Assembly: GCA_031426395.1 (NCBI GenBank)
Contig: JANPLG010000124.1
Span: 1,851 to 65,850 of the forward strand
Length of the DNA: 64,000 nt
Source: Actinomycetes bacterium
GTDB taxonomy: Bacteria > Armatimonadota > SYMT01
Direction of reading: 5' to 3'
Positions 12,624 through 47,346 of this stretch are shown here, one piece after another (position 1 is the stretch's first letter; every line of letters starts with the position of its first letter). Made by a program: the position numbers and the translations under genes. The notes under the pieces are model-generated. The model saw only the letters and a list, made by a program, of their open reading frames with translations, was not told the origin of the DNA and searched no databases.

Positions 12624-13598
12624 ATGAGCCGTGAGATGGAAACTCCCTCCCCCCAGCCCGCGCTTGGTGAGTTCGCCCTTGATCCGTCCCCGAACGGGGG
12701 CATGCGTGAACCCGTAGCCGCAGCGGTAGCCGTACCAGCCCCGTCGCCAGCCACAACGATCTCGCCGCGTTCGCATCACTCCGGCTATACCGCGTCGGCA
12801 CTCTTGTCGCCTTCCGTCAACCCTCTCGGCGGAACAGCGCCCCGCGCGTCTCACGCGATCCGCCCGGAGGAAGACGAAGACGTGGATCCGCCCACGGAGC
12901 GGGGACGCGGATTCCTTGGGCGGCTCTCTATCGCGGAGTGGCTGCTGAAATACCGCGGCTACCTGCTCCGGCAGATCGAGAGTGGGCGGGAGCTGGAGGT
13001 CATCCTGATCGACCTCCTCATCGTGGCCGCCCTGCCGACCGCTTTCTACGGCCTGGTGACGGGAATGGCGACCGGCTCCTGGGCGCGGATGCTGACCAAT
13101 CCGTTCAAGCTGCCGGTGCTGCTGGTTCTCACCACGGTCCTCTGCCTGCCCACCCTCTACATCTTCCTCTCCTACCTGGGCAGCCGGCGGTCGTTCCCAC
13201 AGATCACCGCCCTGGCGTTCACCGGCATCGCCATTGTGGGCATCATCCTCGCCGCCTTCGCGCCAATCACATGGTTCCTTACCTTCACGGCACCCGGAGC
13301 GTATGCGCTGCACGTCGTCGTAAACGTTGCCGTGCTCGCGCTGGCGGGGTGCATGGGTGTCCGCTTCCTCTTCCACGGAGTCCGCCGAGTCCTCGGCAAC
13401 CAGCCCGGGGCTGGGAAGCAGATGACCTTCATGACGGCGTGGATGGCGATGTACGGACTGGTCGGCGCGCAGATGGGATGGATGCTGCGCCCCTTCTTCA
13501 GCCCCACCACCGAACTCTTCCGCGCCCCGGAATCCGGCGGTGAGACCGTCTTCGCCGCCATCGCCTCCCTGGTGTGGCAGCTCGTGGGCGGACGCTGA
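12624..13598 (+). CDS. Polytopic membrane protein of unknown family (paralog 1) with a disordered Pro/Ala-rich N-terminus
   Basis: About 5 predicted TM helices. C-terminal half aligns with the next ORF (GAQMGWMLRPFF / AAQQMAWIFRPHF; APESGGETVFAAIASLV / HPLASGGTALQRLWDLI). Confidence 0.5.
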   Translation: MSREMETPSPQPALGEFALDPSPNGGMREPVAAAVAVPAPSPATTISPRSHHSGYTASALLSPSVNPLGGTAPRASHAIRPEEDEDVDPPTERGRGFLGRLSIAEWLLKYRGYLLRQIESGRELEVILIDLLIVAALPTAFYGLVTGMATGSWARMLTNPFKLPVLLVLTTVLCLPTLYIFLSYLGSRRSFPQITALAFTGIAIVGIILAAFAPITWFLTFTAPGAYALHVVVNVAVLALAGCMGVRFLFHGVRRVLGNQPGAGKQMTFMTAWMAMYGLVGAQMGWMLRPFFSPTTELFRAPESGGETVFAAIASLVWQLVGGR

Positions 13599-13657
13599 TT
13601 GAGCACCCTGCCACCCCACCTGAACCCGAAACAGGAAACAGGGAACTGGAGACCCGA

Positions 13658-14311
13658 ATGCTCCCCATCAACGTCTTCCACCACCGTGAAGAGCTGCTGA
13701 AGGCGCTTCGTGGTGGAGTGGGCCTGCGCTCGCTCATCCGGCGGATGGGCGTCGGCTCGTTCCTCTGCGCCACGGGCTATGGGCTGGTGCTGGGCGCGCA
13801 GGTGGGCGGCTGGCAGGTGCTCTCCAGTCCCGTGAAGCTCTGCCTGGTGCTGCTCGGGACCACCGGCCTCTGCGTCGCGGCCCTCTACGTCATGCTGGCC
13901 CTCGCTGGGCAGCGGCTGGGGTGGGGGCAGGTGGTGGGGCTGGCGCTCTGCTCCGTCTCTGCCAGCGCGCTCTGCATGGCGGCTCTGCTCCCGATCACCG
14001 CCTTCTGGGCCCTGGCCAATTCCAGCCCGGACCGCGCCCCATTGGTGCTCGCGCACGCCACCGCCTTCGGCATCGCGGGGTGGGTCGGCACCCGCTTCGG
14101 GATGGAGATGGCGCGCGCGCTCTTTCCCGTTCCACGAGCCATCCATGTCTTCACCCTCTGGCTCTGGCTCTTCGGCCTGGCGGCGCAGCAGATGGCGTGG
14201 ATCTTCCGTCCCCACTTCCACGCCACCACCACCTTCATGCATCCCCTGGCCTCCGGCGGCACCGCCCTGCAGCGCCTCTGGGACCTCATCACCGGCACGC
14301 TCTTCCGCTGA
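13658..14311 (+). CDS. Polytopic membrane protein of unknown family (paralog 2)
   Basis: Tandem paralog of 12624-13598. Start chosen at MLPINVF with a GGAG RBS about 8 nt upstream; the ORF track gives 13574 as the earliest start. Confidence 0.5.
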   Translation: MLPINVFHHREELLKALRGGVGLRSLIRRMGVGSFLCATGYGLVLGAQVGGWQVLSSPVKLCLVLLGTTGLCVAALYVMLALAGQRLGWGQVVGLALCSVSASALCMAALLPITAFWALANSSPDRAPLVLAHATAFGIAGWVGTRFGMEMARALFPVPRAIHVFTLWLWLFGLAAQQMAWIFRPHFHATTTFMHPLASGGTALQRLWDLITGTLFR

Positions 14312-14406: not shown

Positions 14407-15135
14407 ATGGGCAAACCGTTTACGGATGAAGACTGGAACACGTTACTTGGACACATAGGGTATGGCAACCCGAGGGGCGCTCTCTGGTTCCTGGGGATGG
14501 AGGAAGCTCTTGGAGGTGATCGAGACGCCAACCTACGATGGCGTCTCGATCACTTCGCGCATCCAGTTGATACGCTCACCAACCACATGAAGGCACCTTG
14601 GATAGGCGGTACGGTTCCGCGAACGCCCACCTGGCGCATCATGGCAAAAATTGCGCGACTACTTGAGGGAGCGAATGATTGGGCTGCTCCCGAAGCGGCA
14701 GCCACCTATGTCCGGCGCAAGCCGGGTACAGCAACGGGATCGACATTCCTCATGGAGATGCTGCCCTTGCCGAACAAGAGCCTCAAAGACTGGTCACACC
14801 ATGATCGCTTTCCCGGCGGGCGACTCCATTACGAACGCGACCACCTGACCCAACGGATCGAACAGCTTCGCGAGTTCGTGAATGAGTACCAGCCCCGTTG
14901 CATCATCTGCTACGGGAAGGGATTCTGGCCGAGGTACCATCAGGTTATGCCCTTGACTGATGTGCGGAGCATCCAGTTGCCGGAGACAACGGTAACCATC
15001 GGGAGGTGGAACACGACCACTGTGCTGCACACCCCGTTCTTCGTACCGTACGCGTTTCCAGAGCGTGCGATTGCCGCAATCCCTGGCCTACTTCGTGAGT
15101 ACGCGTGCGACGATACGAAGAGCGCGACCCGGTGA
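14407..15135 (+). CDS. Hypothetical protein in a low-GC islet, with weak resemblance to the uracil-DNA glycosylase superfamily
   Basis: GC drops visibly (~55%) versus flanks. N-terminal GYGNPRGALWFLGMEEALGGD loosely resembles the family-4 UDG GEGNP...FVGEAPG..ED motif, and a VLHTPFF block resembles the C-terminal HPSP motif. No confident family. Confidence 0.35.
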   Translation: MGKPFTDEDWNTLLGHIGYGNPRGALWFLGMEEALGGDRDANLRWRLDHFAHPVDTLTNHMKAPWIGGTVPRTPTWRIMAKIARLLEGANDWAAPEAAATYVRRKPGTATGSTFLMEMLPLPNKSLKDWSHHDRFPGGRLHYERDHLTQRIEQLREFVNEYQPRCIICYGKGFWPRYHQVMPLTDVRSIQLPETTVTIGRWNTTTVLHTPFFVPYAFPERAIAAIPGLLREYACDDTKSATR

Positions 15136-15240
15136 GTGACTTGGAACAACCCGACGTTCCGGTTCAATTGGCCGTGCCTACGCCCTCCGCCTACGATCCA
15201 GCGTGGCGCTTGTGTACCACCGTTCCCCTCCAGCACTCGT

Positions 15241-15267
15241 GTAGGGCACGCTCGCCGCAGCGTGCCG
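15241..15267. repeat. REP-like palindromic element GTAGGGCACGCTCGCCGCAGCGTGCCG (single copy)
   Basis: Same 27-mer as in the 24299-24630 cluster. Stem GGCACGCT/AGCGTGCC with a 6-nt loop. Confidence 0.7.
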
Positions 15268-15544
15268 TCGTTCTCGTCACGCGTGAATCCCCCGCTTGGC
15301 CGATGTCTCCATCGCGGACGGATCGGAAGTGTGGAATCCGACGGCTCGACGGGCATGACACGCTTCCTAACGGTCGCGGTTCCGGTCTGCGGCTCTATGA
15401 CGGGAGGGCGGCAGTATGATTCAGTGGCAGGCCGTCAATGTAGATTTGGAACACAGCGTCCGTGAATCTGTTCGCTCGGCCAGGGTCCAGAGCCGTCCCC
15501 GCCGGCCGACTGCCCAATGCCCAATGCCTAAGACCCGAGGTTGA

Positions 15545-15590
15545 AGAGTAGGATTAGGATTAGGATTAGGATTAGGATTAGGAGCAGGCT
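15545..15590. repeat. (AGGATT)6 tandem hexamer array
   Basis: gtaggattaggattaggattaggattaggattaggagc. Same unit as the TAGGAT hairpin elements at 17516, 18297 and 48344. Confidence 0.85.
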
Positions 15591-15627: not shown

Positions 15628-16407
15628 TTGGCAACCTCCCCCACTGAACTGAGCGGAACCACCTTGCGGCCGATGTCGCGGCCCGCCCCACGGGCCAGCC
15701 TCCCGGCGGAGGCGCGGGCGGTGCTGGTCAAGGACCTCCGCTCCGAGGTCCGCACCCGCGCGGCCCTCGCTACCATCCTGCTCTTCGCGGTGGTCACCCT
15801 CATCACGGTCGCCTTCACCGTGCCAACCAGGGTCCCCGGCCTTGTGGAACGGGGCGCGGACACCATCAACCGCTCCTACGTCCTCTCCGCGCTGCTCTGG
15901 ATCATCCTCTTCTTCAGCGCCATGGCGGGCCTGCCGCGCACCTTCGTCAAGGAAGAGGAGATGCGCACTGCGCCCGCGCTGCGGCTGGCCGCCCGGCCAC
16001 TGGCGGTCTTCTGGGGCAAGCTGCTCTTTAACGCCCTGCTGGTGACTGCGGTCGCTGTGGTGGTTCTCCCCCTCTTCCTCATCCTGCTGACGCCGCGCGT
16101 GGAGAGCTGGCCCGCCTTCCTCGCCTACCTCCTGTTCGGCTCACTCGGCATGGCGGGCGGCGCGACCATCCTCGGGGCCATCGTGGCCCGGGCGGGCGGC
16201 AAGGCCTACCTGATGGTGCCGCTCGCCTTCCCCATCCTGCTGCCGCTGCTGGTGATGACCATCAACGGCACCGCCATCGCGCTCAACGGAAGCACCACAC
16301 ATCCGGTGGCGAATCCCGGCGACCAGCTCCTCCCGCTCGTGTCCTACCTGGTAGCGCTGGTCACCGTCTCCGTCCTGCTCTTCGACTACGTATGGCGGGA
16401 CACCTGA
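15628..16407 (+). CDS. ccmB: Heme exporter permease CcmB
   Basis: Six-TM ABC permease with CcmB-like sequence (LVKDLRSEVRTR...LLFAVVTLITVAF...). TTG start at 15628; an alternative ATG is at 15673. Confidence 0.75.
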   Translation: MATSPTELSGTTLRPMSRPAPRASLPAEARAVLVKDLRSEVRTRAALATILLFAVVTLITVAFTVPTRVPGLVERGADTINRSYVLSALLWIILFFSAMAGLPRTFVKEEEMRTAPALRLAARPLAVFWGKLLFNALLVTAVAVVVLPLFLILLTPRVESWPAFLAYLLFGSLGMAGGATILGAIVARAGGKAYLMVPLAFPILLPLLVMTINGTAIALNGSTTHPVANPGDQLLPLVSYLVALVTVSVLLFDYVWRDT

Positions 16408-16555
16408 TGGCCGGGTGCCCAACCTGGGGCGGCATTCAGGGCGTCTCACAAGGCGAGGGTGATCCGAACCACGGAGACCGGGGCCAGACCGACCGTTATA
16501 ATAGGGACGGACACGGACAGAGGGCCAAGGGCGGCCCAGGAGCAAGGGACGCGGG

Positions 16556-17398
16556 ATGCAGCAGGTGAACCGAACGGCACGACGCAGCGCGGGACCGATG
16601 GGCGTGGCGCTCTGGAAATGGGCGCTGCTGCCGCTCATCATGGGCGTCATCTGCATGGCCTACCTCTGGGCGGGCAACCTGCAGAACTTCATGTCGCCTG
16701 AGACGGCGCGGATCATCTTCTGGCACGTGCCGATGGCGATGGTCTCCCTGGTCTGGTTCGCGGCCTCCGCCTGGTACTCCGTCCGCTATCTGCGGCGGGG
16801 CCAGCCGTTCGATGACGACCGCGCCGCCATCGCCGCCGAGATCGGCCTGATGACCACGGTCCTGGCCACCCTGACGGGGGCGATCTTCTCCAAGATGCAG
16901 TGGGCGGGCGGCCTTAACAGCAAGTGGTACGAAGGCTACTGGCAATGGGACCCCAAGCAGACCGCCATCCTGGTGGTGATCCTCATCTTCGGCGCCTACT
17001 TCGGCCTGCGGATGTCGGTGGAGGACACGGAGCGGCGGGCGCGGCTCTCCGCAGTCTACTCCGTGCTGGGCGCGCTGACCGTCCCGCTGCTCTACTGGGT
17101 GCTGCCCCACCTGCCGATCTTCGCCAGCCTCCACCCCACGGACACCATCAAGCAGGGGATGGACACGCCCTACCGGGTCACCTTCTGGACCTCCACCCTG
17201 TTCTTCACCGGCATCACGCTCTGGGCTTACCAGCTCAAGCTGCGCGTGGCGGAACTGAGCCTCCGCCGGATGCTCAGTGGCGCGGCAACTGGAGCGGGCT
17301 CCGCGCCCACCGTGGCGGTGAGGCGGCCACGACCGGAAGTTGCCACTCACCGGGCGGCTGTCAAAGAGCAAGCCGCCATTCAGCAAGGAGAACGGTAA
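16556..17398 (+). CDS. ccmC: Heme exporter protein CcmC
   Basis: WWD-domain motif KWYEGYWQWDPKQTAILVV and conserved His-containing TM helices. The start could instead be MGVALWKW at 16598. Confidence 0.85.
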   Translation: MQQVNRTARRSAGPMGVALWKWALLPLIMGVICMAYLWAGNLQNFMSPETARIIFWHVPMAMVSLVWFAASAWYSVRYLRRGQPFDDDRAAIAAEIGLMTTVLATLTGAIFSKMQWAGGLNSKWYEGYWQWDPKQTAILVVILIFGAYFGLRMSVEDTERRARLSAVYSVLGALTVPLLYWVLPHLPIFASLHPTDTIKQGMDTPYRVTFWTSTLFFTGITLWAYQLKLRVAELSLRRMLSGAATGAGSAPTVAVRRPRPEVATHRAAVKEQAAIQQGER

Positions 17399-17399
17399 G

Positions 17400-17513
17400 A
17401 TGGAGTTGTACGTGGTGCTGGCAACCAGCGTGCTGGTGTGGAGTGGGCTCTTCTTCTACATGCTCAGCCTCGATAGGAAGCTGACGCGGCTCGAAGAGCG
17501 GGACCGGCAGTAA
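17400..17513 (+). CDS. ccmD: CcmD-like small membrane protein (37 aa)
   Basis: Not in the ORF track because it is under 60 aa. MELYVVLATSVLVWSGLFFYMLSLDRKLTRLEERDRQ, a single TM plus basic tail. AAGGAG RBS, and the start overlaps the ccmC stop region. Confidence 0.65.
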   Translation: MELYVVLATSVLVWSGLFFYMLSLDRKLTRLEERDRQ

Positions 17514-17515
17514 TA

Positions 17516-17647
17516 CCAAGTTCCTAATCTTACTCTTAATCCTAATCCTACTCCCAAGCCTCTCGAACCGTTCCCGCCTACCGACAAGCGGAACGAGCTT
17601 CCAGGGCTTCTTGGAGTAGGATTAAGAGTAAGAGTAGGATTAGGATC
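17516..17647. repeat. MITE-like hairpin element of the AAGTTCCTAATC...(TAGGAT/TAAGAG)n family, copy A
   Basis: Arms built of cctaatc/ttactc hexamers in inverted arrangement around a conserved core ctcccaagcc.ctcg...cccgcctaccg.caag.gga.c.agcttccagg.cttct. AT-rich relative to the genome. Confidence 0.8.
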
Positions 17648-17830
17648 CGATGGCGGTCCGCCATCGGAACTCAACACACCAGCTGCCAACTCCAGGCACG
17701 GGCCAGACCCACTCATCAGAGACGAGGGCGGAACGCAGCCCGGCTGGAAACCGTCTGAGTAATGAGCGCGAAGTTCGCGCAGGGTGCGGGCCGCAGGCGT
17801 CAGAGGCTCACCCGGATAAGGGAAGTGAAG

Positions 17831-18292
17831 ATGAAGGCGAAGAACTTACTTTTAGGCGGCGGTCTGGTGCTGGGCTGCGCCGTGGTCGGTGCCGCTTCCT
17901 TCCGGGGCTCCGAGGTCAACTCCATCGAGTTCGACCAGTTGGCGCGCGTGGGCACCAAGCAGGTGATCCAGGTCTACGGCAAGCTGGACGCGCAGACCAT
18001 TAAGCCGATCAAGGGCAGCCCCAACCACGTGGAGTTCAAGCTCCTGGACGAGAAGACCCACAAGCCTCTCCAGGTGGTGTACGACAACGTTCAGGTTCCA
18101 CTGCCGGCAAACTTCCCGGCCGCCAGCCACGCCAAGGCCACCGGCACCTACGACACTGCCACCAACGTCTTCACGGCCAACTCCGTCCTGACCAAGTGCC
18201 CCTCCAAGTACGAGTACGATACCCTGCCGATTGACCAGAAGCAGGCCGTGGACAAGTTCCAGAAGTCGACCGGTCTGGCCGCAGCCAAGTAA
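17831..18292 (+). CDS. ccmE: CcmE-type heme chaperone, CXXXY variant
   Basis: N-terminal TM, OB-fold core. The position normally holding the heme-binding His (H-x3-Y) reads LTKCPSKYEYD, i.e. C-x3-Y. Start at MKAKNLL with RBS gggaag; the ORF track gives 17762. Confidence 0.7.
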   Translation: MKAKNLLLGGGLVLGCAVVGAASFRGSEVNSIEFDQLARVGTKQVIQVYGKLDAQTIKPIKGSPNHVEFKLLDEKTHKPLQVVYDNVQVPLPANFPAASHAKATGTYDTATNVFTANSVLTKCPSKYEYDTLPIDQKQAVDKFQKSTGLAAAK

Positions 18293-18296
18293 TGTT

Positions 18297-18426
18297 AAGT
18301 TCCTAATCTTAATCCTACTCCTAATCTTACTCCCAAGCCCTTCGTGGCGATCCCGCCTACCGGCAAGTGGATCAAGCTTCCAGGACTTCTCTGAGTAAGA
18401 TTAGGAGTAAGAGCAGGATTAGGAAT
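18297..18426. repeat. MITE-like hairpin element of the AAGTTCCTAATC...(TAGGAT/TAAGAG)n family, copy B
   Basis: Begins 5 nt after the ccmE stop. Same core and arm architecture as 17516-17647. Confidence 0.8.
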
Positions 18427-18580
18427 TCGAACCCCACGAGGCTCGTTGTGACCGGACACCCCTGCGCTTCCGCAGGCCGGGCATGGCGGGCCTTTCCCAT
18501 AGATTTGATCGCCGCGTGCGCACTCTTCCCTTTCCCGGGTAGAGCACCGATAGAGCAGCACCCTGGCGAGGAGCGAATGA

Positions 18581-21415
18581 ATGCCGGAACCGAACATCTC
18601 CGATGCCGTCCACAAGTCGGGACTGCTGGGTATCGCCGTTACGTTCGGCAACCTGGCGGTCTGGATCGGCCTCTTCTTCACCGTCCTCGCGGTGATCTTC
18701 TTCTGGCGCGCGATGCTGCGCACCATGCGCCTTCATCCTGAGGGGTCTGGCGCGGCGGGGGCCGGCACGGCAGGTTCCGTGTCTGCGCTGGCCGCCAACG
18801 GGGGCGGCAAGAACGGTGACGGCAAGCAGGCCAACGGAAAGAACGGGAACGGCAACGGGAAACACGCCCGGCCGGCCGCTCACTCCAGTTCGGCGGCCAG
18901 TAAAGCGGCCAGTACGGCGACCAGTTCGTCCCTTTCGGAGGCGGAGCAGAAGACGGAGGTCGTCTTCCACTGGGCCAAGCAGTTCTGGATCGTCTCCTGC
19001 TCCATGATGTTCCTGGCGGCGCTCTGCCTCTGGACCCTGCTCCTCACCCAGCAGTACAACATCAGTTACGTGCTGAAGAACACCAACCCGGAGATCCCCA
19101 TCTTCTACCGGTTCGCCGCGTTCTGGGCCAACCAGGAGGGGACGTTCATCCTCTGGGGGATGTACAACGCGGTCATCGCCGGCTTCCTCTTCTGGCGCGC
19201 CAAGCAGGACGTGCGCTGGGTGATGCCGTTCTTCGCGCTGATCAACGTCTCGCTCTTCACGCTGCTCTTCTTCATGAACCCGTTCTGGTTCCCGGCAGCG
19301 GAAGAAGTGCGCAAGGGGCTCACCGCAGCCGGCCTACCGCCGGACAAGCTGGCCTGGCTGCCTAACACCTGGTCGCAGCACCTCGCGTACTACTTCGGGT
19401 GGGGCACCTACATCCGGCCCAACCTGCTGCAGCCCCGGGGACTGAACGAGAGCCTGCAGAACTTCTGGTTCGTGATCCACCCGCCCACCCTCTTCGTCGG
19501 GTACAGCACCATGATGGTGCCGGGCATCTTCGCCCTCGGGGCCCTGATGCGCCGGGACTACGACCAGTGGATCAACCGCGCCGCCTCGTGGCTGATGTTC
19601 TCCTGGACCGTCCTGGCCTTCGGAGTCTTCCTCGGCGCCTACTGGGCCTACGAGACCCTGGGCTGGGGTGGCTACTGGAGTTGGGACCCCGTCGAGAACT
19701 CCTCGCTCATCCCGTGGCTGGTCGGCACCACGCTGCTCCACGGCTTGCTGGCGCAGCGCAACCGGGGCAACTTCAAGCACGTCAACCTCTTCCTGGGGAT
19801 GCTGGCGCTCAACTCCGTCTGGATCGCCTCCTTCCTGGTGCGGAGCGGCGTCCTCTCGGAGGTCTCCGTCCACTCCTTCGCCACGCCGGACAAGGCGGTC
19901 TTCTTCACGCTGCTGGTTGGCATGATCGCGATGGCGGCCCTGAGTCTCGGGATCTGGCTCTGGCGCTTCAAAGACATCCAGAGCGAGATCGCTTATGAGC
20001 ATGTCTGGGAGCGCCACTTCGGCTTCTTTCTCGGCCTGATCACGCTCTCCGCCATCTCCGTGGTGGTCACCTTCGGCGTCACCATGCCGATCTGGAAGCC
20101 GTGGATCAGCGGCGGGCAGAAGTCGACGCTCGACCACCTCTTCTACAACAAGGCGACGCTGCCCATCGTCTACGTGACGGTGCTCCTGATGGCGCTGACC
20201 CCGCTGATGCCGTGGCGTCACGCGCGTGAGCAGGCGCGGCCACCGAAGCTGTTCACCAAGGTGGCGCTGGCGCTGGCCGGGATCATCTCCGCCTACTTCA
20301 TGGTCGGCGCGATCATGGCGTGGCAGAACGGCTTCCGCTCTTTCAACGACACGCCGCCCTCCTTCGGGAACGACCACGCGTACATCGCCTTCGCGCTGCT
20401 GCTGGGGCTGTCGCTGATCACCAACTTCTCCGTGCTCATTCGCGCCTTCAAGGGCGGCATCTTGAACACGGGGGCGTGGTGGGCGCACATCGGGTTCATC
20501 CTGATGCTGGCCGGCGTGATGATGAGCACCCGCCTCAAGACGGTCCAGAACATCACGGAGTTGCCGCTCAACAGCGCGGTGAAGCTGTATGGCCGGGACT
20601 GGACCTTCAAGGGTGAGCGTCCCTCCTCTGGGGATGGCGACCGGCCACGGATGCTGGTCCAGATGCGGGAGCCGGGTGGCCACGTCCGCGATTTCGATCC
20701 CAAGGTCTTCATCAACACCCAGGGCGAGAAGCCGACCGCCATGGCGTGGCCGCAGATGGAGAGCCAGTGGTTCGGCGGGGCCTGGGGAGACCTCTACCTG
20801 GAGCCCTCCAGCATGGTCTCCTACAAGCCGCTCGGCTCGGTGGAGAAGCTGAAGAAGGACTCCCCGCCGCAGACCTTCCTGGTCCAGCACCCCAGTTCGC
20901 AGAAGGAAGACACCATCACGGTGCAGTTCCTTTCGCTGGACACTTCGGAACTGCAAAAGGCGGTGCAGGCCGGCGCCCGCGGCCCGATGCTGGCCTACGC
21001 CGACCTTACGGTCACCGTCAACGGCGAGCAGCGCTCCCTCCGCGCCCCGATGGAGCTGCAGTTCGGTGGCCCGGAAGGACCGAAGACGGACGCACGCCCG
21101 ATTGTGCTGGAAGGGCCCAACGCGGAGATCACCTACACTCTCTTCTGCCAGACCAACATGACGCCCGGAAACCTGGTTGCCAGCGTGGTGGTGGCGGTGC
21201 CGGTGGCCAACTTCCAGGTGATGCACATTCCCGGCATTCAGGTGCTCTGGTTCGGGGTGTACATCATGGTCGGAGGTGGGATCATCGCCTTCTTGCGGCG
21301 GCGCCAGCTCGCGAACAAGATCGTCCCCGCCTTCAAGGGTCCCCGCCGCACCGACGAGCCGGAACCGACGGAGAAGGCTCCGCTTCCGGAGCGGGAGCTG
21401 GTCGGCGCGGAGTAG
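18581..21415 (+). CDS. ccmF: Cytochrome c-type biogenesis protein CcmF (heme lyase subunit), 944 aa with N- and C-terminal extensions
   Basis: WWD motif GWGGYWSWDPVENSSLIPWL, conserved His-containing TM helices and about 15 TM segments. N-terminal ~150 aa include an extra TM and a G/N/K low-complexity linker. Confidence 0.85.
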   Translation: MPEPNISDAVHKSGLLGIAVTFGNLAVWIGLFFTVLAVIFFWRAMLRTMRLHPEGSGAAGAGTAGSVSALAANGGGKNGDGKQANGKNGNGNGKHARPAAHSSSAASKAASTATSSSLSEAEQKTEVVFHWAKQFWIVSCSMMFLAALCLWTLLLTQQYNISYVLKNTNPEIPIFYRFAAFWANQEGTFILWGMYNAVIAGFLFWRAKQDVRWVMPFFALINVSLFTLLFFMNPFWFPAAEEVRKGLTAAGLPPDKLAWLPNTWSQHLAYYFGWGTYIRPNLLQPRGLNESLQNFWFVIHPPTLFVGYSTMMVPGIFALGALMRRDYDQWINRAASWLMFSWTVLAFGVFLGAYWAYETLGWGGYWSWDPVENSSLIPWLVGTTLLHGLLAQRNRGNFKHVNLFLGMLALNSVWIASFLVRSGVLSEVSVHSFATPDKAVFFTLLVGMIAMAALSLGIWLWRFKDIQSEIAYEHVWERHFGFFLGLITLSAISVVVTFGVTMPIWKPWISGGQKSTLDHLFYNKATLPIVYVTVLLMALTPLMPWRHAREQARPPKLFTKVALALAGIISAYFMVGAIMAWQNGFRSFNDTPPSFGNDHAYIAFALLLGLSLITNFSVLIRAFKGGILNTGAWWAHIGFILMLAGVMMSTRLKTVQNITELPLNSAVKLYGRDWTFKGERPSSGDGDRPRMLVQMREPGGHVRDFDPKVFINTQGEKPTAMAWPQMESQWFGGAWGDLYLEPSSMVSYKPLGSVEKLKKDSPPQTFLVQHPSSQKEDTITVQFLSLDTSELQKAVQAGARGPMLAYADLTVTVNGEQRSLRAPMELQFGGPEGPKTDARPIVLEGPNAEITYTLFCQTNMTPGNLVASVVVAVPVANFQVMHIPGIQVLWFGVYIMVGGGIIAFLRRRQLANKIVPAFKGPRRTDEPEPTEKAPLPERELVGAE

Positions 21416-21540
21416 CGCTGCCGCTTGGGGCAGATGACGCAAATAGCCCGCCGCACGGAGTTGAACCTCCGTGCGGCGGGCTTCTTGCGGTCTGAAACTG
21501 ATCCCTGTCCCCCTACGAACCCAAACCCAAGCCTTCCGCC

Positions 21541-22812
21541 TCAGACTGAACCCCTGAACCCCGAACCCCGAACCCTCCCGAGGTGATGGCTGCCTTCCGT
21601 CAGCGCCGCACCGGCGGCGGCGAGGAGTCGATGCAGTTCCGGTTCGCTGTCCGCGCGCAGCGTCAGGTGGCCCAGCTTGCGGCCCGGTGCTGCGCTCTTG
21701 CCGTACAGGTGCAGGTGCGCCCCCGGCAGCGAGAGGAGCGGCGCGGCATCGGGATGCTCGCCCAGCAGGTTGACCATGGCGCTGAAGCCGCGCGGCGCGG
21801 TGCTCCCCAGGGGCAGGCCGGCCACCGCCCGGAGGTGGTTCTCGAACTGGCTGGTCTCCGCCCCTTCGATCGACCAGTGGCCGCTGTTGTGGACCCGTGG
21901 CGCCATCTCGTTGGCGATGAGCTGGCCATCCGCCGTCAGGAAGAGCTCGATCGCGAGGACGCCCACGTAGTCGAGCCGTTCCAGCGCCACCCGGGCATAG
22001 CTCTCCGCGAGGTGCTGGACCTCCGGCTCAAGCGAAGGCGCGGGCGCGAGGGTGAGCGCGAGGATCCCCTCTGGGTGGTGGTTCTCCACCAGCGGATAGA
22101 AGGCGACTTCGCCGGCCCGGCCCCGCACGCCCAGGATGCTAACCTCCCGCTGAAACGGAACCCAGCCCTCCAGGATCAGCGGAACCCCTCCCAGCGCCTC
22201 CCACGCCCCCGCGACATCGCGCTCCTCCCGCAGGACGCGTTGCCCCTTGCCGTCGTAGCCGCAGCGGCGCGTCTTGAGGACCGCGGGCAGGCCGAGATCG
22301 GCGACCGCCGTGTGGAGGTCGGCCTCCGTTTCCACGGGCGCATAGGCGGGCGTGGGGATTCCGAGAGACTGGAAGAATTGCTTCTCCGTGAGCCGGTCCT
22401 GGCAGGTCTCGAGGGCCCCTGCCGGCGGGAAGACCGGCACGCTGCGCTGGAGGAGCGCCGCTGTCCGCGCTGGGACGTTCTCGAACTCATAGGTGACCAC
22501 GTCCGCGCCTGCTGCAAGCTGCTCCAGCGCCGCTTCGTCGTCGAAGTCGCCCAGCACCAGCTCCGCCAGGTGGCCGGCGGGCGCTTCCGGGCTAGGGTCG
22601 AGCACGCGGAAGCGCATTCCGAGCGGGTAACCGGCCAGTGCCAGCATCCGCCCAAGCTGGCCGCCGCCCAGAATCCCGACTAGGGCACAGGGCGCAGGGC
22701 CTAGGGCATTGGGAGCCGCTGCCGGAAGGTGCGGCGAGGTCTCTCTATCTCCGCGTCTCTCCATCTCTCCATCCCCATTCGACCCGTCGCTGATCGGTGT
22801 CCGCTCGCTCAT
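21541..22812 (-). CDS. purK: N5-carboxyaminoimidazole ribonucleotide synthase PurK, with an N-terminal repeat-encoded extension
   Basis: [17 protein letters not shown]-grasp start motif. The ATG overlaps the purE stop (ATGA), which supports the upstream start. Residues 1-40 ([10 protein letters not shown]...) are encoded by a ctctc/tctcc simple-repeat array. Confidence 0.85.
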
Positions 22813-23449: not shown

Positions 23450-23545
23450 CCCAGCCACCTATCGTCATCCTCGCCTGGCAGCCTTTCTGCGAAGCGGCCC
23501 GTGCCGTGCGGGGATCCAGCCACGCCCGTCTCGCACCGGGGTGCG
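23450..23545 (-). ncRNA. Conserved ~95-nt element in the purE 5' leader; second copy at 340-450. Possible structured RNA or repeat, function unknown
   Basis: ccccggtgcg.g.cgggcgtggctggatccccgca.g..acgggccgcttcgcag....g..gcc.ggcgaggatgacga is shared by the two loci, in the same orientation relative to transcription of purE. Confidence 0.3.
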
Positions 23546-23662
23546 GACCTCCTGCGACCGAACGCAACCCGCGTGGACGAGCGGCCACCACCCCCACACA
23601 AACGAAAGGCCCGCCCCGGAATGGGACGGGCCTCTCGATGAGCTTGGTGCGAAGCAGCGAGC

Positions 23663-24022
23663 TTACTGGCCGCCGGTGGTGCCGCCGGTGCTACCGCCCA
23701 TGTCGCCGCCGGTTGAAGGCGTGGCCGGCTCAGCAGGGGCACCCGGAGCGCCAGGGGCACCCGGAGCGCCAGGAGCGCCCGCCGGACCCGCCGGACCCGG
23801 AGCGCCGGGCATCGGCACCGGAATCACGCTCGGCGAGGGCGAGGGGTTGCTCGGCTGGATCACGTTCACGTTGGGAGCGGGGGCGGAGCCGGCCTCAACG
23901 GTGCGCGGCTGCCACCAGACGAAGTAGCCAAGCATCAGGGCGAAGACCGCCACTACCAGCACAATCGCCATCGTTCCCCACGCCGCGCTACTCTCGGTGT
24001 CGCGATAAACCACAGGGCTCAT
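23663..24022 (-). CDS. Small membrane-anchored protein with a collagen-like (GAPGAPG)n tract
   Basis: N-terminal TM (MAIVLVVAVFALMLGYFVWW) followed by P/S/G-rich and GAPGAPGAPG repeats. The coding status of the repeat is uncertain. Confidence 0.35.
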   Translation of the reverse strand: MSPVVYRDTESSAAWGTMAIVLVVAVFALMLGYFVWWQPRTVEAGSAPAPNVNVIQPSNPSPSPSVIPVPMPGAPGPAGPAGAPGAPGAPGAPGAPAEPATPSTGGDMGGSTGGTTGGQ

Positions 24023-40379: not shown

Positions 40380-41789
40380 TTGAGCTGGCGGTTCCATCGG
40401 AAAGCTGTATCCCTGATGTCTCGCCCCCTCTTCTTCCTGACGCGCCTCTTTCGCCCGGCACCTTCGGTGCTTGTCCCGGCCCTCTGCCTGAGCGGCGGCA
40501 TGACGGTCCTCGCAGCGGCGAGTGCGCCGCAGCCGCAGCCCAACCCGAGCGGAACGGCGCTGACCAAGCTGACGGGGAACCGGATCAAACGGAGCAACCC
40601 CTTTTTCGCCAAGCTGGGGATCAATGACCGCACCTGCGAGAGCTGCCACCGCGAGGCGGCGGGCTGGTCTATCACCCCGGCGCAGGTGCGGTCGCTCTTC
40701 GACAGCACGGAGGGCCTCGACCCGCTCTTCCGGACCAACGACGGCACCACCTCTCCGCAGGCGGATGTCTCCACGCTGGAGGCGCGACAGGCGGCGTACG
40801 CACCGCTACTGGAGCGGGGCCTGATCCGGGTTGGCCTGCCCATCCCCGCCGGCGCGGAGTTCGCGCTGGACGCAGTGGACGATCCCCACGGATTCGCGAG
40901 CGTGGCCGAACTCTCCCTTTTCCGGCGACCGCTTCCGGCCACCAATCTCCGCTTCGAAACGACGGTGATGTGGGATGGGCGGAAGTCGACGCCGGGCCAG
41001 ACCCACGCGAGGAACCTGGCCGACCAGGCGCTCGACGCCACCAGGGGCCACGCGCAGGCGGCGGTGGCTCCGACCCCGGCTCAGCTTCAGAGCATCGTCC
41101 GCTTCGAGAGCTCCCTGCACCACGCGCAGATCCGGGACGCGGCAGCGGGCCTGCTGACGGCGGAAGGCGGCAAGGGCGGTCCGGCGGCGCTCCGCCAGCA
41201 GGAGTTCACGGCGGGTCTGAACAATCCGTTCAGCCGGAGGTTCAACCCGATCACCTTCACGCTCTTTTCCAAGTGGGCGAAGGCACGTGGCGGCGGGAAT
41301 ACGGCGATCGCGGCGGCACGGAAGTCGGTGGCGCGCGGAGAGGTGAGCTTCAACCGGAAGCGGTTCACTCTGACTGGCGTGGCCGGCTTCAATGACCGCG
41401 TTGGCCAGCCCGCCGTGACCGTCACTTGCTCAAGCTGCCACCACACGCCCAACGTCGGCAGCAGCTCCATCGGGTTGCTCACCGATATCGGGGTGAGCGC
41501 GCCCACCCGACGGCTGCCACATCAGCCGCTTTACACGCTGCGCAACCTCGGCACGAATGCGGTTCGGCAGACGACGGACCCGGGTCGGGCGCTGATCACC
41601 GGCAAGTGGGCGGACCTCGACCGCTTCAAGACGCCGGGCCTGCGCGGGCTGGCGTCGCGGGCACCGTACTTCCACGACGGCTCTGCGGCCACCCTGGGCG
41701 ACGTGATCGACTTCTACGACACCCGCTTCGACATCCGCTACAGCGCTCAGGAACGGGCGGACCTGGAAGCGTTCATGCGCGCGCTCTGA
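40380..41789 (+). CDS. Di-heme cytochrome c oxidoreductase / peroxidase-like protein (DHOR/CCP superfamily)
   Basis: Signal peptide and two CxxCH motifs (CESCH, CSSCHH) about 260 aa apart. Confidence 0.65.
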
Positions 41790-41981
41790 CGACGGTACGG
41801 AGCGCGGCGCGAGTGAACAATCCCACTCTTTTGATCGATACTCACGGAAGGGACCGGTCGCTCCTCTGGAGAACCAAGGCTCGTTCCCACTCAGTGCTGG
41901 CGTTGGCCTGACACGAATGGAACCGAGCCAGCCCGCCCCGTGCCGTATGGGTGCCGGCCGGCTCAGATACGGAGAAACCAG

Positions 41982-42530
41982 ATGAACAAATCCGGATGGA
42001 TCGTAGCCGCAAGCGCGGTTCTGCTTGTAGCCGGTATTGGCCACCAGGCCAACAGCGCCCCGGGCGACCTGCCCAAGAGCGAGGTCCAACGTGGCCTGGC
42101 CATCTCGCCCGTGAACCTCAAGCTGCGGGGCCTGAACCGTGACCTGGTGGGTCGCGGCTCCTACATCATCAACGCGCAGGGCGGCTGCAACGACTGCCAC
42201 ACTTTCCCTTCCTACGCCCCGGGCGGCAACCCGTTTGCGGGCGAGCCGGAGCAAATCAACAAGGACCACTACCTCTCCGGCGGGATGCCGTTCGGGCCAC
42301 CGCCGAGTTCACCCGTCAGCCGCAACCTCACCCCGGATGCCACGGGCAAGCCGGCGGGTATGACCTTCCAGGAATTCAAGCGCACGCTGCGCACCGGCCG
42401 GGACCTCAACGGAAACACGCTCCGCATCATGCCGTGGCCGGTCTACGGCAAGATGACCGACCAGGACATCCGCGCGGTCTACGAGTTCCTCCGCGCCATC
42501 CCGCGCGCGGAACCCGGCACCGGCCCCTAG
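41982..42530 (+). CDS. Mono-heme c-type cytochrome
   Basis: Signal peptide and a single CNDCH heme-binding motif. Start MNKSGW with RBS ggagaaacc; the ORF track gives 41940. Confidence 0.7.
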   Translation: MNKSGWIVAASAVLLVAGIGHQANSAPGDLPKSEVQRGLAISPVNLKLRGLNRDLVGRGSYIINAQGGCNDCHTFPSYAPGGNPFAGEPEQINKDHYLSGGMPFGPPPSSPVSRNLTPDATGKPAGMTFQEFKRTLRTGRDLNGNTLRIMPWPVYGKMTDQDIRAVYEFLRAIPRAEPGTGP

Positions 42531-42646
42531 GCAATTCGGGTTTGGCGGATCGCTTTCGGGAGAGGGATTGACTCAGGATGGCTGTTATGGCCTGTTAGGT
42601 CGATCTCTCTCCCGTTTTGTTTGCCACCCGGAAGCGATGGTCGGTG

Positions 42647-44322: not shown

Positions 44323-47300
44323 TCAGTCGACGAACATCATCTCGTTGGTGAGGAACAGCACTTGCGCGAGCTGCTCCCATGCGTTGAGCGGAGATTTGGA
44401 ACCAGCCGTGGCTCCAACGAACGCGAGTGCCGCACGGGTCTCCTCTGAAGTGGCGGGGCGCTGGAATAGGGCGCGGTAGAGGCCGGCGACCCGCGCCTCA
44501 TCCGTCTCCGCGCCCTTGACTTGCGCCGCAAGCGCCCGCGCCTGCTCCACCACAAAGGGCGAGTTCAATCCGAAGAGGGCCTGCTGCGGGACGATGGTCC
44601 GGGGCCGCCGCTCCACGGAGTTGTCCGGCTGCGCGAAGTTGAAGGCGCGGAACGCCTCCGGCAGGCTCTGACGGTCGACCAGGGCGTAGACGGTGCGGCG
44701 CCGGTTCCCTGGATCGAAGGCGTCCCGCAGGGCTCGTCCGAACTGCGCGCGGTCCAGCCGTCCGGAGGCCGCCACCAGCGTGTCGCGCATCTCCTCGAAG
44801 TCGAGGCGGCGGCGGCGGAAGCGCCAGAGGAGCCGGTTCTCGGGATCCTTCAATTGCGGAATGCGGAATGCGGAATGCGGAATTGGGGAGCGGGTTGGCT
44901 GGTGGCGGGAACTGTGCTTCTCGACCCCAGGTTGATGCGGGCGGGACGCCCGCGCTCCGGGGGGCGGAATGAGGGCGGATGACTGGCGGTAGGTGGCGCT
45001 GTTGACCATGAGGCGGTGGAGCTTCTTGAGCGACCACGCTAGGCCATCCGATGTCGCTCCCTCTCCCCCTCGCTCCCTCGCTCCCTCGCCAAGGGGGGCG
45101 GAGAAGCGCGCGGCGAGGTAATCCAGCAACTCCGGGTGCGTGGGCGGCGCGCTGCGGCTGCCGAAGTCGCTGGGTGTGGCGACCAGCGGCTCGCCGAAGT
45201 GGTGCATCCAGACGCGATTGACCATCACGCGGGCCGTGAGCGGGTTGCGCGGGTCGGTGATGGAGCGGGCCATCTCCAGCCGCCCACTTCCAAGGTTGAA
45301 GGAGGGCTGGCGGGTGCCGGTGAGCACCGCCAGGAACCGCCGCGGCACGGTTTCACCAGGAGTTGACGGATTGCCCCGCGTGAAGACGCGCGGTGGGTGC
45401 AACTCCTGGCTGTCGTTGAGCACCATGGCGCGGGGCGGGGCACCGGCCTGCTGTACCGCTAGAACATCGAGGTTCTGCTGCATCCCGCCGTACGCGTCCT
45501 TCTCGCCACGGGACATGTAGTAGTAAGTGTGGTTTCGCGGGAACCAGGCGGGACTCTCGGTGGAGGTCACCAGCTCGAGGAGCTGCCGCTGCTCCGGCGT
45601 CATGGCGGGGGCGCTGGGGGCCTTTCCGGCCTGGTATGTCTGCTTAAGCAGATCCGCATAGACCCTGGCTACGGCCTTCCGGTCGTCCAGCTTGGCGGCG
45701 GTGAGGGCTTGCAGGACGACCCTGTTCACCTGCCCCGTAGCGGTTCCGGCAGGGCGCATAACCAGGCGTGCCAAAACTGCCGCCGAAGCCTCGATAAAGC
45801 CCTTCTCCGGGAGGTCCGCCAGCGCCCGGTAGGGGCTGAAGAGCGGGTCATCCGGGGTGGCGCGTCGCTGGATGAGCCGCCGCCACCGGGCCACAATCTG
45901 CGGGCGGAGGTCGCCGGGGTCGAGGGAGAGGAAGAAGATCGCCGTCTCCAGCGGGTCCGGGTCCGTGGTGGCGGCGTGGAAGAAGTAGTCGCCGGCGCGC
46001 TCCCTCGCCGTCTCGCTCAGCAGCGTGAACTGCTTGCTCTCGAAGGCCGCCAGCTCTTGCTTCTTCGGCTCGTACTGCTTCGCGTAATCCGCGTAGCCAG
46101 GCACCTGCTCCGGCTGCGCGATGAGCGGCAGGTCGAGCGGCGCCTCGCTGGCGGCGAAGACGCCGTAGAGGGAGTAGTAATCCTTGATCGGGATGGCGTC
46201 GTACTTATGGTCGTGGCAGCGGGCGCAGCTCACCGTGAGGCCCAGGAGACCACGGCTCACGGTGTCGATCTTGTCGTCGATTTGATCGTGGACGTTGTTG
46301 TCGTACTGCCGCCCAAGGGTGAGGAACCCCATGGCGGCGAGGCGCCATGCCTCGCCCTTAAGGTCGAGCTGGTCCGCGGCGAGCTGCTCCTGGACGAAGC
46401 GGTCATAGGGGGTGTCCGCGTTCAGGGCGCGGATGACGTAGTCCCGGTAGGTGTAGGCGTAGGGACGGATCCGCGCATCGCCGTACTGGAGCACGCCGTC
46501 CTTGGTGTCCGCGTACCGGGCGACATCCAGCCAGTGCCGTCCCCACCGCTCTCCGTAAGAGGGAGAGGCGAGGAGGCGGTCGACCACCTTCTCGTAGGCG
46601 TCATGGGAGCGGTCGGCCAGGAAGGCATCCGCTTCCTCAGCCGTGGGCGGGAGGCCGGTGAGGTCATAGGTCACCCGTCGCAGCAGTGTGCGGCGGTCCG
46701 CAGGCGGCGAGGGGGCGAGGCCCGCCTTTTGCAGCCGCGCCAGGACGAAGGCGTCGATGGGATTCCGGGCCGGGAGCTTGGAGTTTGCCACCGCAGGCAC
46801 GGCCGGCTTTCGGAGCGGCTGGTAGGCCCAGTGGTTCCTTGCCTCACGGACGATGCGCACCTGGTCGCCCAGCACCATACCGCTCCGGGTCTTGCTCTCC
46901 GGCCATGGTGCCCCGAGGCGGATCCACTCCTCCAGCGCCTCGATCTTGGCCTTCGCGAGGCGCTTGCCGGGCGGCATCACCACATCTTCATGGTGGACGG
47001 CGCGGACGAGCCAGCTTGAGAGAGGGTCGCCCGGCACCAGGCCGGGGCCGCGAGCGCCGCCCTTGAGGGTCGCCTCGCGGGTGTCGAGACGCAGCCCGCC
47101 CTGCTGAAGCTTGGGGCCGTGGCAGGACTGGCATTCCTGGAGCAGCATCGGCCGCACCTGCTTCTCGAAGATCTCCAGGCCCGCTGCGGAGGGACCTATG
47201 GAGGGACCCTGTGGGGCAGCCACGCGGTTGGTTGGCGCGGCCACAGAAGCCGTGGTCGCCACGACTCCGCCGTAAAGACTGATGGCAATCCATCCCACTA

Positions 47301-47346
47301 ACCGCCCGGATTGTCCTATCCGCCTGATCTGCCCTGTTCGCACCAC
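44323..47346 (-). CDS. PSCyt1/DUF1549/DUF1553 (planctomycete-cytochrome-c-type) protein with two in-frame repeat insertions
   Basis: N-terminal CQSCHGPK...LRLDT (PSCyt1), central DUF1549 blocks and a C-terminal DUF1553. (CGGAATG)4 at 44851-44894 and (CTCCCTCGC)n at 45061-45092 lie inside the reading frame. Confidence 0.75.
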   Translation of the reverse strand: MVRTGQIRRIGQSGRLVGWIAISLYGGVVATTASVAAPTNRVAAPQGPSIGPSAAGLEIFEKQVRPMLLQECQSCHGPKLQQGGLRLDTREATLKGGARGPGLVPGDPLSSWLVRAVHHEDVVMPPGKRLAKAKIEALEEWIRLGAPWPESKTRSGMVLGDQVRIVREARNHWAYQPLRKPAVPAVANSKLPARNPIDAFVLARLQKAGLAPSPPADRRTLLRRVTYDLTGLPPTAEEADAFLADRSHDAYEKVVDRLLASPSYGERWGRHWLDVARYADTKDGVLQYGDARIRPYAYTYRDYVIRALNADTPYDRFVQEQLAADQLDLKGEAWRLAAMGFLTLGRQYDNNVHDQIDDKIDTVSRGLLGLTVSCARCHDHKYDAIPIKDYYSLYGVFAASEAPLDLPLIAQPEQVPGYADYAKQYEPKKQELAAFESKQFTLLSETARERAGDYFFHAATTDPDPLETAIFFLSLDPGDLRPQIVARWRRLIQRRATPDDPLFSPYRALADLPEKGFIEASAAVLARLVMRPAGTATGQVNRVVLQALTAAKLDDRKAVARVYADLLKQTYQAGKAPSAPAMTPEQRQLLELVTSTESPAWFPRNHTYYYMSRGEKDAYGGMQQNLDVLAVQQAGAPPRAMVLNDSQELHPPRVFTRGNPSTPGETVPRRFLAVLTGTRQPSFNLGSGRLEMARSITDPRNPLTARVMVNRVWMHHFGEPLVATPSDFGSRSAPPTHPELLDYLAARFSAPLGEGARERGGEGATSDGLAWSLKKLHRLMVNSATYRQSSALIPPPGARASRPHQPGVEKHSSRHQPTRSPIPHSAFRIPQLKDPENRLLWRFRRRRLDFEEMRDTLVAASGRLDRAQFGRALRDAFDPGNRRRTVYALVDRQSLPEAFRAFNFAQPDNSVERRPRTIVPQQALFGLNSPFVVEQARALAAQVKGAETDEARVAGLYRALFQRPATSEETRAALAFVGATAGSKSPLNAWEQLAQVLFLTNEMMFVD

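Follow-up and report, generated by a model that had tools for sequence, protein, structure and literature searches.

A probable cysteine-type System I cytochrome c maturation operon in an uncultured Armatimonadota bacterium

Introduction

Can a cytochrome c maturation (Ccm) locus still encode a working System I when its heme chaperone CcmE carries a cysteine at the place of the heme-binding histidine, its CcmF reaches 944 aa, and ccmA, ccmG and ccmH are not found beside the remaining genes? This question is raised by a ccmBCDEF cluster on the + strand, at positions 15628-21415 of a 64,000-nucleotide stretch of DNA from an uncultured bacterium placed by GTDB in the Armatimonadota (assembly GCA_031426395.1, contig JANPLG010000124.1, positions 1,851 to 65,850 of the forward strand). 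The whole stretch is called the window throughout, and positions are those of the window unless another locus is named. We argue that the locus probably is functional. It is also largely ordinary, being an instance of a known cysteine variant of CcmE that occurs commonly in several phyla of bacteria. Taken by itself, it contributes little beyond extending cysteine-type System I to the Armatimonadota, for which we found no discussion of Ccm proteins in the literature searched; the distribution of the cysteine form is the more useful result.

Gene content of the ccm cluster

The window has a GC content of ~65%, and the codon-position GC pattern was used as a filter for likely genes among the open reading frames (ORFs). 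Five + strand ORFs within 15628-21415 were retained by this filter, with a GC content at third codon positions (GC3) of 0.88-0.92, as in real genes. Each of them exceeds the Pfam gathering score of its family, which bears out the ccmBCDEF cluster named in a preliminary description of this DNA. The minus-strand ORFs 16496-17386 and 19334-21442 were rejected as genes; they fail the codon-position GC pattern and are therefore regarded as antisense shadows in 65% GC DNA.

The first gene, ccmB (15628..16407, +; 259-aa ORF), encodes the permease subunit of the heme-exporter ATP-binding cassette (ABC) complex (Pfam CcmB PF03379, 42.7 bits, cut-off 24.9). The protein is not truncated, since it aligns with the CcmB of relatives over its full length; a gene call on an independent contig places its likely start at ~15673, leaving 244 aa. 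It is followed by ccmC (16556..17398, +; 280-aa ORF) for the heme-handling protein that loads CcmE, with a likely start at ~16598 by the gene call on an independent contig. CcmC matches PF01578 (Cytochrom_C_asm) with 63 bits and the TIGR01191 ccmC model with E 1.2e-19, the latter under the family cut-off. Its Trp-rich WWD motif WYEGYWQWDPKQT begins at residue 129 and is flanked by loops containing His57 and His193, which we take, from motif similarity rather than a computed alignment, to correspond to H60 and H184 of E. coli.

The small ccmD (17400..17513, +) encodes 37 aa with a single transmembrane (TM) helix and is of the CcmD_alt type (PF20077, 30.7 bits, cut-off 23.5; TIGR04391, 28.9 bits, cut-off 24). 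The start at 17400 and the length of 37 aa are the same in the gene call on an independent contig, and a CcmD_alt gene also stands between ccmC and ccmE in relatives and in loci of the Fibrobacteres-Chlorobi-Bacteroidetes (FCB) group. The cysteine-type heme chaperone is encoded by ccmE (17762..18292, +; 176-aa ORF; PF03100, 43.6 bits, above the cut-off), whose probable start at ~17840, judged from the alignment, gives 150 aa. The cluster closes with ccmF (18581..21415, +) for the heme lyase or holocytochrome c synthase of 944 aa (PF01578, 97.6 bits; PF16327, CcmF_C, 53.8 bits). NCBIfam recovers the same families as Pfam for the locus, with CcmD_alt passing its cut-off. When CcmE and CcmF were used as queries, identical proteins were found in the independent Logan assembly of run SRR20217183.

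In CcmF the functional histidines P-His1 (H300) and P-His2 (H431) on the periplasmic side as well as TM-His1 (H387) and TM-His2 (H636) are invariant in 116 homologs. The same is true for nine of the 12 residues of the WWD motif WGGYWSWDPVEN at 362-373 (W362, G363, G364, W366, W368, D369, V371, E372 and N373), and at least 90% of these homologs also share Y365 and P370. An AlphaFold2 model built on the 116-homolog alignment (predicted local distance difference test, pLDDT, 89; predicted template-modelling score, pTM, 0.88) has 15 TM helices. This number has been reported for the crystal structure from Thermus thermophilus and for CcmF of E. coli (PMC10746174). T. thermophilus CcmF (6ZMQ) matches the window protein in sequence (E 5e-45) and is the sole significant PDB fold match of the model (E 1.2e-16, TM-score 0.75).

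The cysteine motif of CcmE and the absence of CcmG and CcmH

CcmE has an N-terminal hydrophobic anchor and ends in the motif LTKCPSKYEYD, in which C146-P-S-K-Y150 forms the heme-binding element. In an alignment of the clade with the E. coli protein, Cys146 falls on His130 and Tyr150 on Tyr134, in agreement with the claim of a CXXXY CcmE with its cysteine at the histidine position. The preliminary description had also named what would speak against it, namely a tail histidine at the heme site or a protein that is not CcmE by profile. Reading of the sequence revealed no histidine after residue 123, hence none past Cys146, and PF03100 is passed; a histidine elsewhere in the tail as the true heme ligand was rejected accordingly. 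A collection of 5.8 billion proteins contained 38 relatives of this CcmE, the named ones from metagenome-assembled genomes of Armatimonadota, and TKCPSKY is invariant across 37 clade members. The only solved structure matched by the protein is CcmE of Desulfovibrio vulgaris (2KCT), which is itself of the cysteine type and in which the cysteines align.

A second conserved position was noticed in the same protein. His123 (~18128-18130; motif FPAASHAK) is found in at least 90% of the CcmEs of the Armatimonadota clade and lies five residues past the Phe aligned to F103 of E. coli, which we take to be a heme-contact residue. Cysteine-type CcmEs of the FCB group and of Desulfovibrio have Ser or Glu at this position. 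His123 could be an extra heme ligand.

We then considered the partner proteins of canonical System I. Pfam searches of the 30 large ORFs of the window detected neither ccmG nor ccmH, and no ABC ATPase, thioredoxin or CcdA, so that the earlier remark that ccmG and ccmH do not follow ccmF applies to the window as a whole. No window ORF contains an LRCxxC motif, and the sole WCxxC ORF (23506-24441) fails the codon-position GC filter and lay outside the family scan. In 86 loci no plausible CcmH-like LRCxxC gene stands beside the ccm genes, the five ORFs with the motif looking like chance occurrences. Likewise, neither CcmH nor CcmG adjoins the operon in four Armatimonadota relatives. The absence of both genes beside the operon fits a variant rather than a canonical System I.

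With CXXXY in place of HXXXY in CcmE and with CcmH and CcmG missing beside the cluster, we assign the locus on sequence grounds to the variant System I, or System I-prime, as the preliminary description had done; this variant was described by Allen et al. 2006 (as cited in PMC9084895). The cysteine has been probed elsewhere. With the exchange C120A, Methanosarcina acetivorans no longer forms heme-bound CcmE, and with C120H the protein itself is not detectable (PMC9084895; PMC3884852). In D. desulfuricans no heme-bound CcmE was obtained with C127H (Goddard et al. 2010, as cited in PMC9084895). These two species are the only ones for which heme binding through the cysteine and sufficiency of the system have been demonstrated (PMC9084895). 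CcmABCEF of M. acetivorans is enough for maturation without CcmH (PMC9084895).

Distribution of the cysteine form and operon layouts

The cysteine form of CcmE had been described as rare in bacteria generally. We scanned the GTDB species-representative genomes for the pattern TKCPSKY[DEK], a scan which by design selects on the motif. At least 600 stretches match, of which at least 324 were confirmed as CcmE relatives from many bacterial phyla. Among the matches listed, the confirmed proteins come mostly from Bacteroidota, Ignavibacteriota and Kapaibacteria, with further ones from Desulfovibrio and other groups. The 80 loci kept of these at least 324 belong to Bacteroidota, Ignavibacteriota, Kapaibacteria, Chlorobiota, and Desulfovibrio and its relatives, and include Desulfosporosinus, Deferribacterales, Thermoanaerobaculia, Gemmatimonadota and one archaeon.

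Since the pattern scan selects on the motif, a motif-blind CcmE profile search against 1.84 billion cluster representatives was added. Among its best 150 hits 141 carry CxxxY and none HxxxY. In the other nine, the cysteine occurs without the tyrosine (four), both are missing (one, TKVPNRD), or the sequence ends or leaves the frame before the motif (four). Together with the at least 324 confirmed TKCPSKY loci, these numbers do not agree with rarity. Recent literature credits "a few bacteria" with the CXXXY form (PMC9084895), which understates what the databases contain. Sequence data show the cysteine type to be the standard one in large groups of bacteria, and it is to be expected when cytochrome maturation is annotated in Bacteroidota, Ignavibacteriota, Chloroflexota and Armatimonadota.

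Profile hidden Markov models made from the Armatimonadota Ccm proteins were run over all fetched loci to describe their layouts. In loci with the order D_alt-E-F, usually with A-B-C in front, CcmF has a median length of 771 aa and a maximum of 915 (n=53 complete genes). In loci with the order E-F-A-B-C (Desulfovibrio, Desulfosporosinus, Deferribacterales) CcmF is short, with 625-663 aa (n=11). The window operon has the D_alt-E-F layout, which with its CcmF of ~770-915 aa has to our knowledge never been studied experimentally. A third layout was observed in loci of the Kapaibacteria/Chlorobiota type (L017, L018, L021, L029, L030, L045, L063, L070 and L080-L082). Here CcmC is enlarged to 331-365 aa, ccmB is not within 10 kb and no CcmA-like gene stands beside the operon; most of these loci have, directly 3' of ccmF, a thioredoxin-like gene with WGTWCPPC, which is not found at this place in the Armatimonadota loci.

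Overall reading and proposed mechanism

We read the locus as a working operon for cytochrome c maturation by a cysteine-type System I (System I-prime) and assign this reading a probability of about 0.82. Several points weigh against it. We know of no experiment on any Armatimonadota Ccm system. The NCBIfam scores of CcmC, CcmE and CcmF lie far under the curated equivalog or subfamily cut-offs (CcmE reaches 17.6 bits for an equivalog cut-off of 152), which indicates that the three proteins are divergent from the characterized proteobacterial ones. CcmA is needed in the studied systems to release holo-CcmE, and Pfam detected no ccmA among the 30 large ORFs of the window. A database search with the CcmA of a relative returned 1516 matches, all ~57-71% identical, without the ccmA of this genome being found; the cluster members carry no sample accessions, so that a copy from the same genome could not be picked out. 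As to a thiol-reduction branch, neither a CcmG-like protein nor CcdA turned up among the 30 large ORFs of the 64-kb window. Finally, two long hairpins interrupt the operon and could affect its expression.

The data presented here establish the gene identities, the conserved residues, the fold, the distribution and the synteny in relatives; the heme chemistry, the independence from CcmH and the place of ccmA are deduced. From homology with the Ccm systems studied in Desulfovibrio and Methanosarcina, we infer the following mechanism. CcmC together with the small CcmD_alt would present heme at the outer side of the membrane, where it would be attached to Cys146 of the membrane-anchored CcmE, with Tyr150 serving as iron ligand. 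The CcmB permease and a CcmA ATPase encoded elsewhere would release the heme-loaded CcmE. CcmF would receive the heme at the site formed by the WWD motif and the P-His residues H300 and H431, and would probably reduce it via a b-heme in the membrane that is bound by H387 and H636. CcmF would then ligate the heme to secreted apocytochromes at their CXXCH cysteines, presumably without a CcmH partner.

The ccmA gene and the junction upstream of ccmB

The observation of the preliminary description that ccmA is not upstream of ccmB is correct for the window and atypical, as ccmA lies directly upstream of ccmB in four related loci (L001, L003, L004 and one more). A tblastn search of the window with three CcmAs of the clade gave no ccmA remnant (best E 0.03). 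The position of the relatives' ccmA is taken by an ORF of 242 aa (14407..15135, +), a compositional outlier with a GC content of 0.58 and a GC3 of 0.66, compared with 0.88-0.92 for the ccm genes. The ORF does not belong to the ccm system and probably represents foreign DNA. Further upstream lie two adjacent + strand ORFs, 12624-13598 and 13574-14311, which have normal GC3 and contain hydrophobic stretches of similar appearance. Pfam, NCBIfam and PHROGs gave no match for any of the three ORFs, and thus there is no sign of a replacement for CcmA among them.

The DNA between the 242-aa ORF and ccmB contains a copy of a GTAGGGCACGC... repeat and then a lone half arm of a hexamer hairpin, (TAGGAT)x5 followed by TAGGAG (15549..15584), 44 nt upstream of the ccmB ORF and at the site of the relatives' ccmA. 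The Logan assembly of SRR20217183 ends at ~15267 in the GTAGGGCACGC... repeat and resumes at 15555 in the TAGGAT array (contig L005), so the junction upstream of ccmB is not spanned independently. At the other end of the operon a Logan contig confirms the junction from ccmF to purK.

The right-hand flank also differs from that of the relatives. Their ccmF is followed by hemA, coding for glutamyl-tRNA reductase, and a 306-323-aa CcsA-like Cytochrom_C_asm gene (L001 13454-20189, L003 14240-19300, L004 13279-15524, in the coordinates of these loci). In L001 and L003 hemC and hemD/cobA come next, and other genes follow the CcsA-like gene in L004. Genes for heme synthesis and for heme attachment are thus clustered in these relatives. 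The window has a convergent purK-purE pair in place of this hem block.

Two explanations of the missing ccmA were weighed. In the first, to which we give about an even chance, the rearrangement is real: the 5' gene was lost by recombination or insertion at the hairpin, ccmA is located elsewhere in the genome, and the system still works. This is suggested by the half hairpin arm at the breakpoint, by the low-GC, foreign-looking ORF and the second repeat family directly upstream, and by the altered downstream flank, where hemA, the CcsA-like gene and hemC (with hemD in L001 and L003) have given way to purK-purE across a junction backed by the independent contig. In addition ccmB to ccmF are intact and have kept their conserved residues. 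The point on the other side is the database search described above, in which a ccmA from this genome was not found among cluster members without sample accessions.

In the second explanation the missing ccmA is an assembly artefact caused by a mis-join across repeats, and the true order is ccmA-hairpin-ccmB. All four related loci carry ccmA immediately upstream of ccmB, and L003 has a complete hexamer-armed hairpin between the two genes, of which the window shows only the right-hand arm. The gene left of the junction is the compositional outlier, and no independent contig crosses from ~15267 to 15555. However, the deposited contig (67,758 bp) is continuous through the junction, and from the Logan breaks it follows only that unitigs made of short reads end at repeats, which does not make the join wrong. 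Moreover, ccmA and ccmB are genuinely missing within 10 kb in other cysteine-type loci, such as the C-D-E-F loci of the Kapaibacteria type. We regard a mis-join as a tentative and rather unlikely explanation, and a real rearrangement with ccmA elsewhere as somewhat more likely.

Size of CcmF and the question of a CcmH substitute

The length of 944 aa and the linker given for CcmF in the preliminary description hold, the linker being the A/G/S/N/K-rich region ~52-119. The "extra N-terminal TM" does not: residues 14-51 form the canonical TM1, which aligns to the N-terminal helix of short CcmFs and contains a Gly23 conserved in at least 90% of the 116 homologs, and the helix count of the model is the canonical 15. 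Nor is the size peculiar to this locus. The relatives of the protein at 45-56% identity are Armatimonadota. In three related loci CcmF has the layout of the window protein and a length of 891, 905 and 915 aa, and D-E-F loci reach 915 aa around their median of 771. The large CcmF is a lineage trait and not an added module with a catalytic motif of its own.

According to alignment and model the extra length comes from five places. The loop between TM1 and TM2 (~52-119) is disordered (pLDDT <50 at 59-104) and, by canonical topology, is predicted to be cytoplasmic. It is variable, being shorter in three aligned Armatimonadota relatives and missing in eight CcmFs of other phyla. A periplasmic insert (~236-285) precedes P-His1, and a small extra loop is found at 583-598. 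The C-terminal beta domain (654-884) exceeds that of short CcmFs by ~130-150 residues, an enlargement it has in common with FCB-type proteins, and behind the last TM helix (886-910) there is a tail of 34 residues. When modelled alone the beta domain reaches a pLDDT of 94.7, and no significant PDB fold match was found for the isolated domain (best E 0.08). In a review the beta-stranded domain of CcmF is placed above the heme site, as a cap comparable to that of CcsB (PMC10663686). This placement fits a weak Pfam ResB-like match of 38 residues at 872-909.

The absence of a CcmH gene beside any cysteine-type locus raises the idea that CcmF stands in for CcmH or CcmI, its enlarged parts being a fused apocytochrome-binding or thiol-reducing module. 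The ~130-150 additional residues of the beta domain would sit at the "beta cap" place over the active site (PMC10663686), the domain is confidently folded, and there is the weak ResB-like stretch at 872-909. Against this, CcmF contains no CXXC or LRCxxC motif, and its three cysteines (140, 149 and 856) fall outside the invariant and the at least 90% conserved columns of the 116 homologs, so that a fused CcmH is unlikely. TPR repeats were not found in CcmF either, and the isolated beta domain has no significant counterpart among PDB folds. The loci beginning with ccmE-ccmF, which lack a CcmH-like gene within ~10 kb, still have CcmFs of 625-663 aa; the enlargement is therefore not tied to the absence of CcmH. 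Taken with these points, we consider a fused replacement improbable. The enlarged beta domain is nevertheless a concrete target for studying how heme ligation works without CcmH.

A broader version of this idea, which we hold to be quite improbable and put forward as speculation, is that the CcmF beta domain and His123 of CcmE together take over the apocytochrome handling or ligand switching of CcmH and CcmI, in an operon that perhaps also works without a dedicated CcmA. If true, the cysteine-type Ccm system of this Armatimonadota lineage would be self-sufficient in a manner not yet described.

That the large gene is a specialized lyase of the NrfE or CcsA type instead of a general CcmF is hardly credible: an NCBIfam match to the NrfE family TIGR03145 (E 1e-57), a weak CcsB hit and the name "cytochrome c biogenesis protein CcsA" on several database relatives point that way, but the top NCBIfam match is the general CcmF/NrfE subfamily TIGR00353 (E 3e-63), all NrfE scores are far under their cut-offs, the gene closes the ccmBCDE operon here and in relatives, the NrfA, NrfF and NrfG families are absent from the Pfam scans of the 30 large window ORFs, the protein has the CcmF_C domain and the CcmF fold with 15 TM helices, and CcmE plays no part in a true CcsBA system. 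The "CcsA" names are generic annotations. System II (CcsBA/ResBC) was rejected as well: its traces are weak sub-threshold CcsB hits and the 38-residue ResB-like stretch, and CcmE, CcmC and CcmF_C are present.

Hairpins and repeats

Two palindromes of 137 nt lie within the operon. Hairpin element 1 (17509..17645) starts at the ccmD stop codon (-66.5 kcal/mol, z = -9.5) and element 2 (18288..18424) at the ccmE stop codon (-60.7 kcal/mol, z = -7.6). They are 83% identical and form the direct-repeat family D2. Their arms are tandem hexamers of the CCTAAT, CTTACT and CTCTTA types, near-perfect and AT-rich in a genome of 65% GC. As ccmD and ccmE overlap in L001 and L003 and are 5 nt apart in L004, element 1 is interpreted as an insertion. 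One contig of the independent assembly of the same run ends inside element 2 and another begins inside it. Besides the half arm upstream of ccmB, a second one is located at 48348-48371. Locus L003 has hexamer-armed hairpins at its positions 8151-8228 and 1702-1772, and the one between its ccmA and ccmB is a shorter form. Breaks within these hairpins are seen in short-read assemblies. The hairpins have no Rfam match, and a scan of public metagenomes for the core pattern gave five chance matches, all without hexamer arms. They may be elements resembling repetitive extragenic palindromes (REP) or miniature inverted-repeat transposable elements (MITE), or structures that stabilize or terminate transcripts.

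After the ccmF stop codon there is a GC-rich, terminator-like hairpin with a 16-bp stem (21446..21481), shared with the convergent purK. The region 21416-21545 folds with -60.7 kcal/mol (z = -6.5). A simple terminator scan, which requires a T-run, missed this hairpin. The only Rfam matches in the operon lie at the same hairpin and are sub-threshold, and promoter and terminator consensus scans of the operon yielded no more than shuffled sequence.

The second intergenic repeat family has the core GTAGGGCACGCTCGCCGCAGCGTGCCG, a short palindrome, and is represented at 15235-15284, 24293-24342 and 24432-24481. The first copy is the one between the 242-aa ORF and ccmB in which the independent assembly ends; those at 24 kb belong to 114-nt units at 24284-24397 and 24423-24536. 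Arrays of 8-nt units (TCGCCCCC/TCGCTCCC) were found at 29599-29658 and at 45046-45097, the second inside the PSCyt1 gene described below.

Candidate substrates

The preliminary description had placed several c-type cytochrome genes near the cluster, and three genes for CXXCH proteins are indeed present 19-26 kb downstream (40380-47346). They encode a di-heme MauG/MbnH-like protein with two CXXCH motifs (40380..41789, +), a mono-heme protein of 196 aa with one (41940..42530, +), and a PSCyt1/DUF1549/DUF1553 protein of 1007 aa with CXXCH at residues 72 and 374 (44323..47346, -). All three are likely candidates and could serve as substrates of the Ccm proteins. The last one forms, with a DUF1501 partner, a pair on the minus strand (42647-47346) that is typical of Planctomycetes and is found here on an Armatimonadota contig.

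Comparison with known systems

The canonical System I, as represented by CcmABCDEFGH of E. coli and by the T. thermophilus structure 6ZMQ, has the same proteins and the same CcmF fold with WWD domain and four histidines. In contrast to the window, it has His130 in CcmE where the window protein has Cys146, a CcmF of ~650 aa instead of 944 aa, and CcmG and CcmH, which are not present here.

The variant System I of Desulfovibrio (D. desulfuricans and D. vulgaris) shares the CXXXY CcmE with an identical TKCPSKY core, is likewise without CcmH and CcmG beside the operon, and provides with 2KCT the best solved match for CcmE. It differs in its gene order, which is ccmE-F-A-B-C compared with (A)-B-C-D-E-F in the window, and in its short CcmF of 625-663 aa. 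Furthermore the model trained on CcmD_alt finds no ccmD in most Desulfovibrio-type loci, and the CcmE proteins are only ~30-35% identical to that of the window.

The archaeal CcmABCEF1F2 of M. acetivorans also uses a CXXXY CcmE, which is essential for heme binding, and is sufficient for maturation without CcmH and CcmI (PMC9084895). The archaeal systems have no CcmD and a CcmF split into two genes at scattered loci, whereas the window encodes CcmD_alt and one large CcmF.

The operons of Bacteroidota, Ignavibacteriota, Chlorobiota and Kapaibacteria with the order ccmA-B-C-D_alt-E-F resemble the window in gene order, CcmD_alt and TKCPSKY CcmE, and their large CcmF (median 771 aa, some 890-908) has an expanded C-terminal beta domain as in the window. 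In the ~900-aa CcmFs of Bacteroidota and Ignavibacteria, however, the length comes from a different insert of ~100 aa that aligns after TM9. Compared with these FCB-type proteins, the clade of the window adds to CcmF the low-complexity loop between TM1 and TM2 and a longer periplasmic insert before P-His1, and to CcmE a 3-residue insert and His123. The Armatimonadota relatives have the operon ccmA-B-C-D_alt-E-F, and where the CcmF copy is complete, in L001, L003 and L004, it measures 891-915 aa. The genome of the window, unlike the FCB-type operons, does not have ccmA in the operon.

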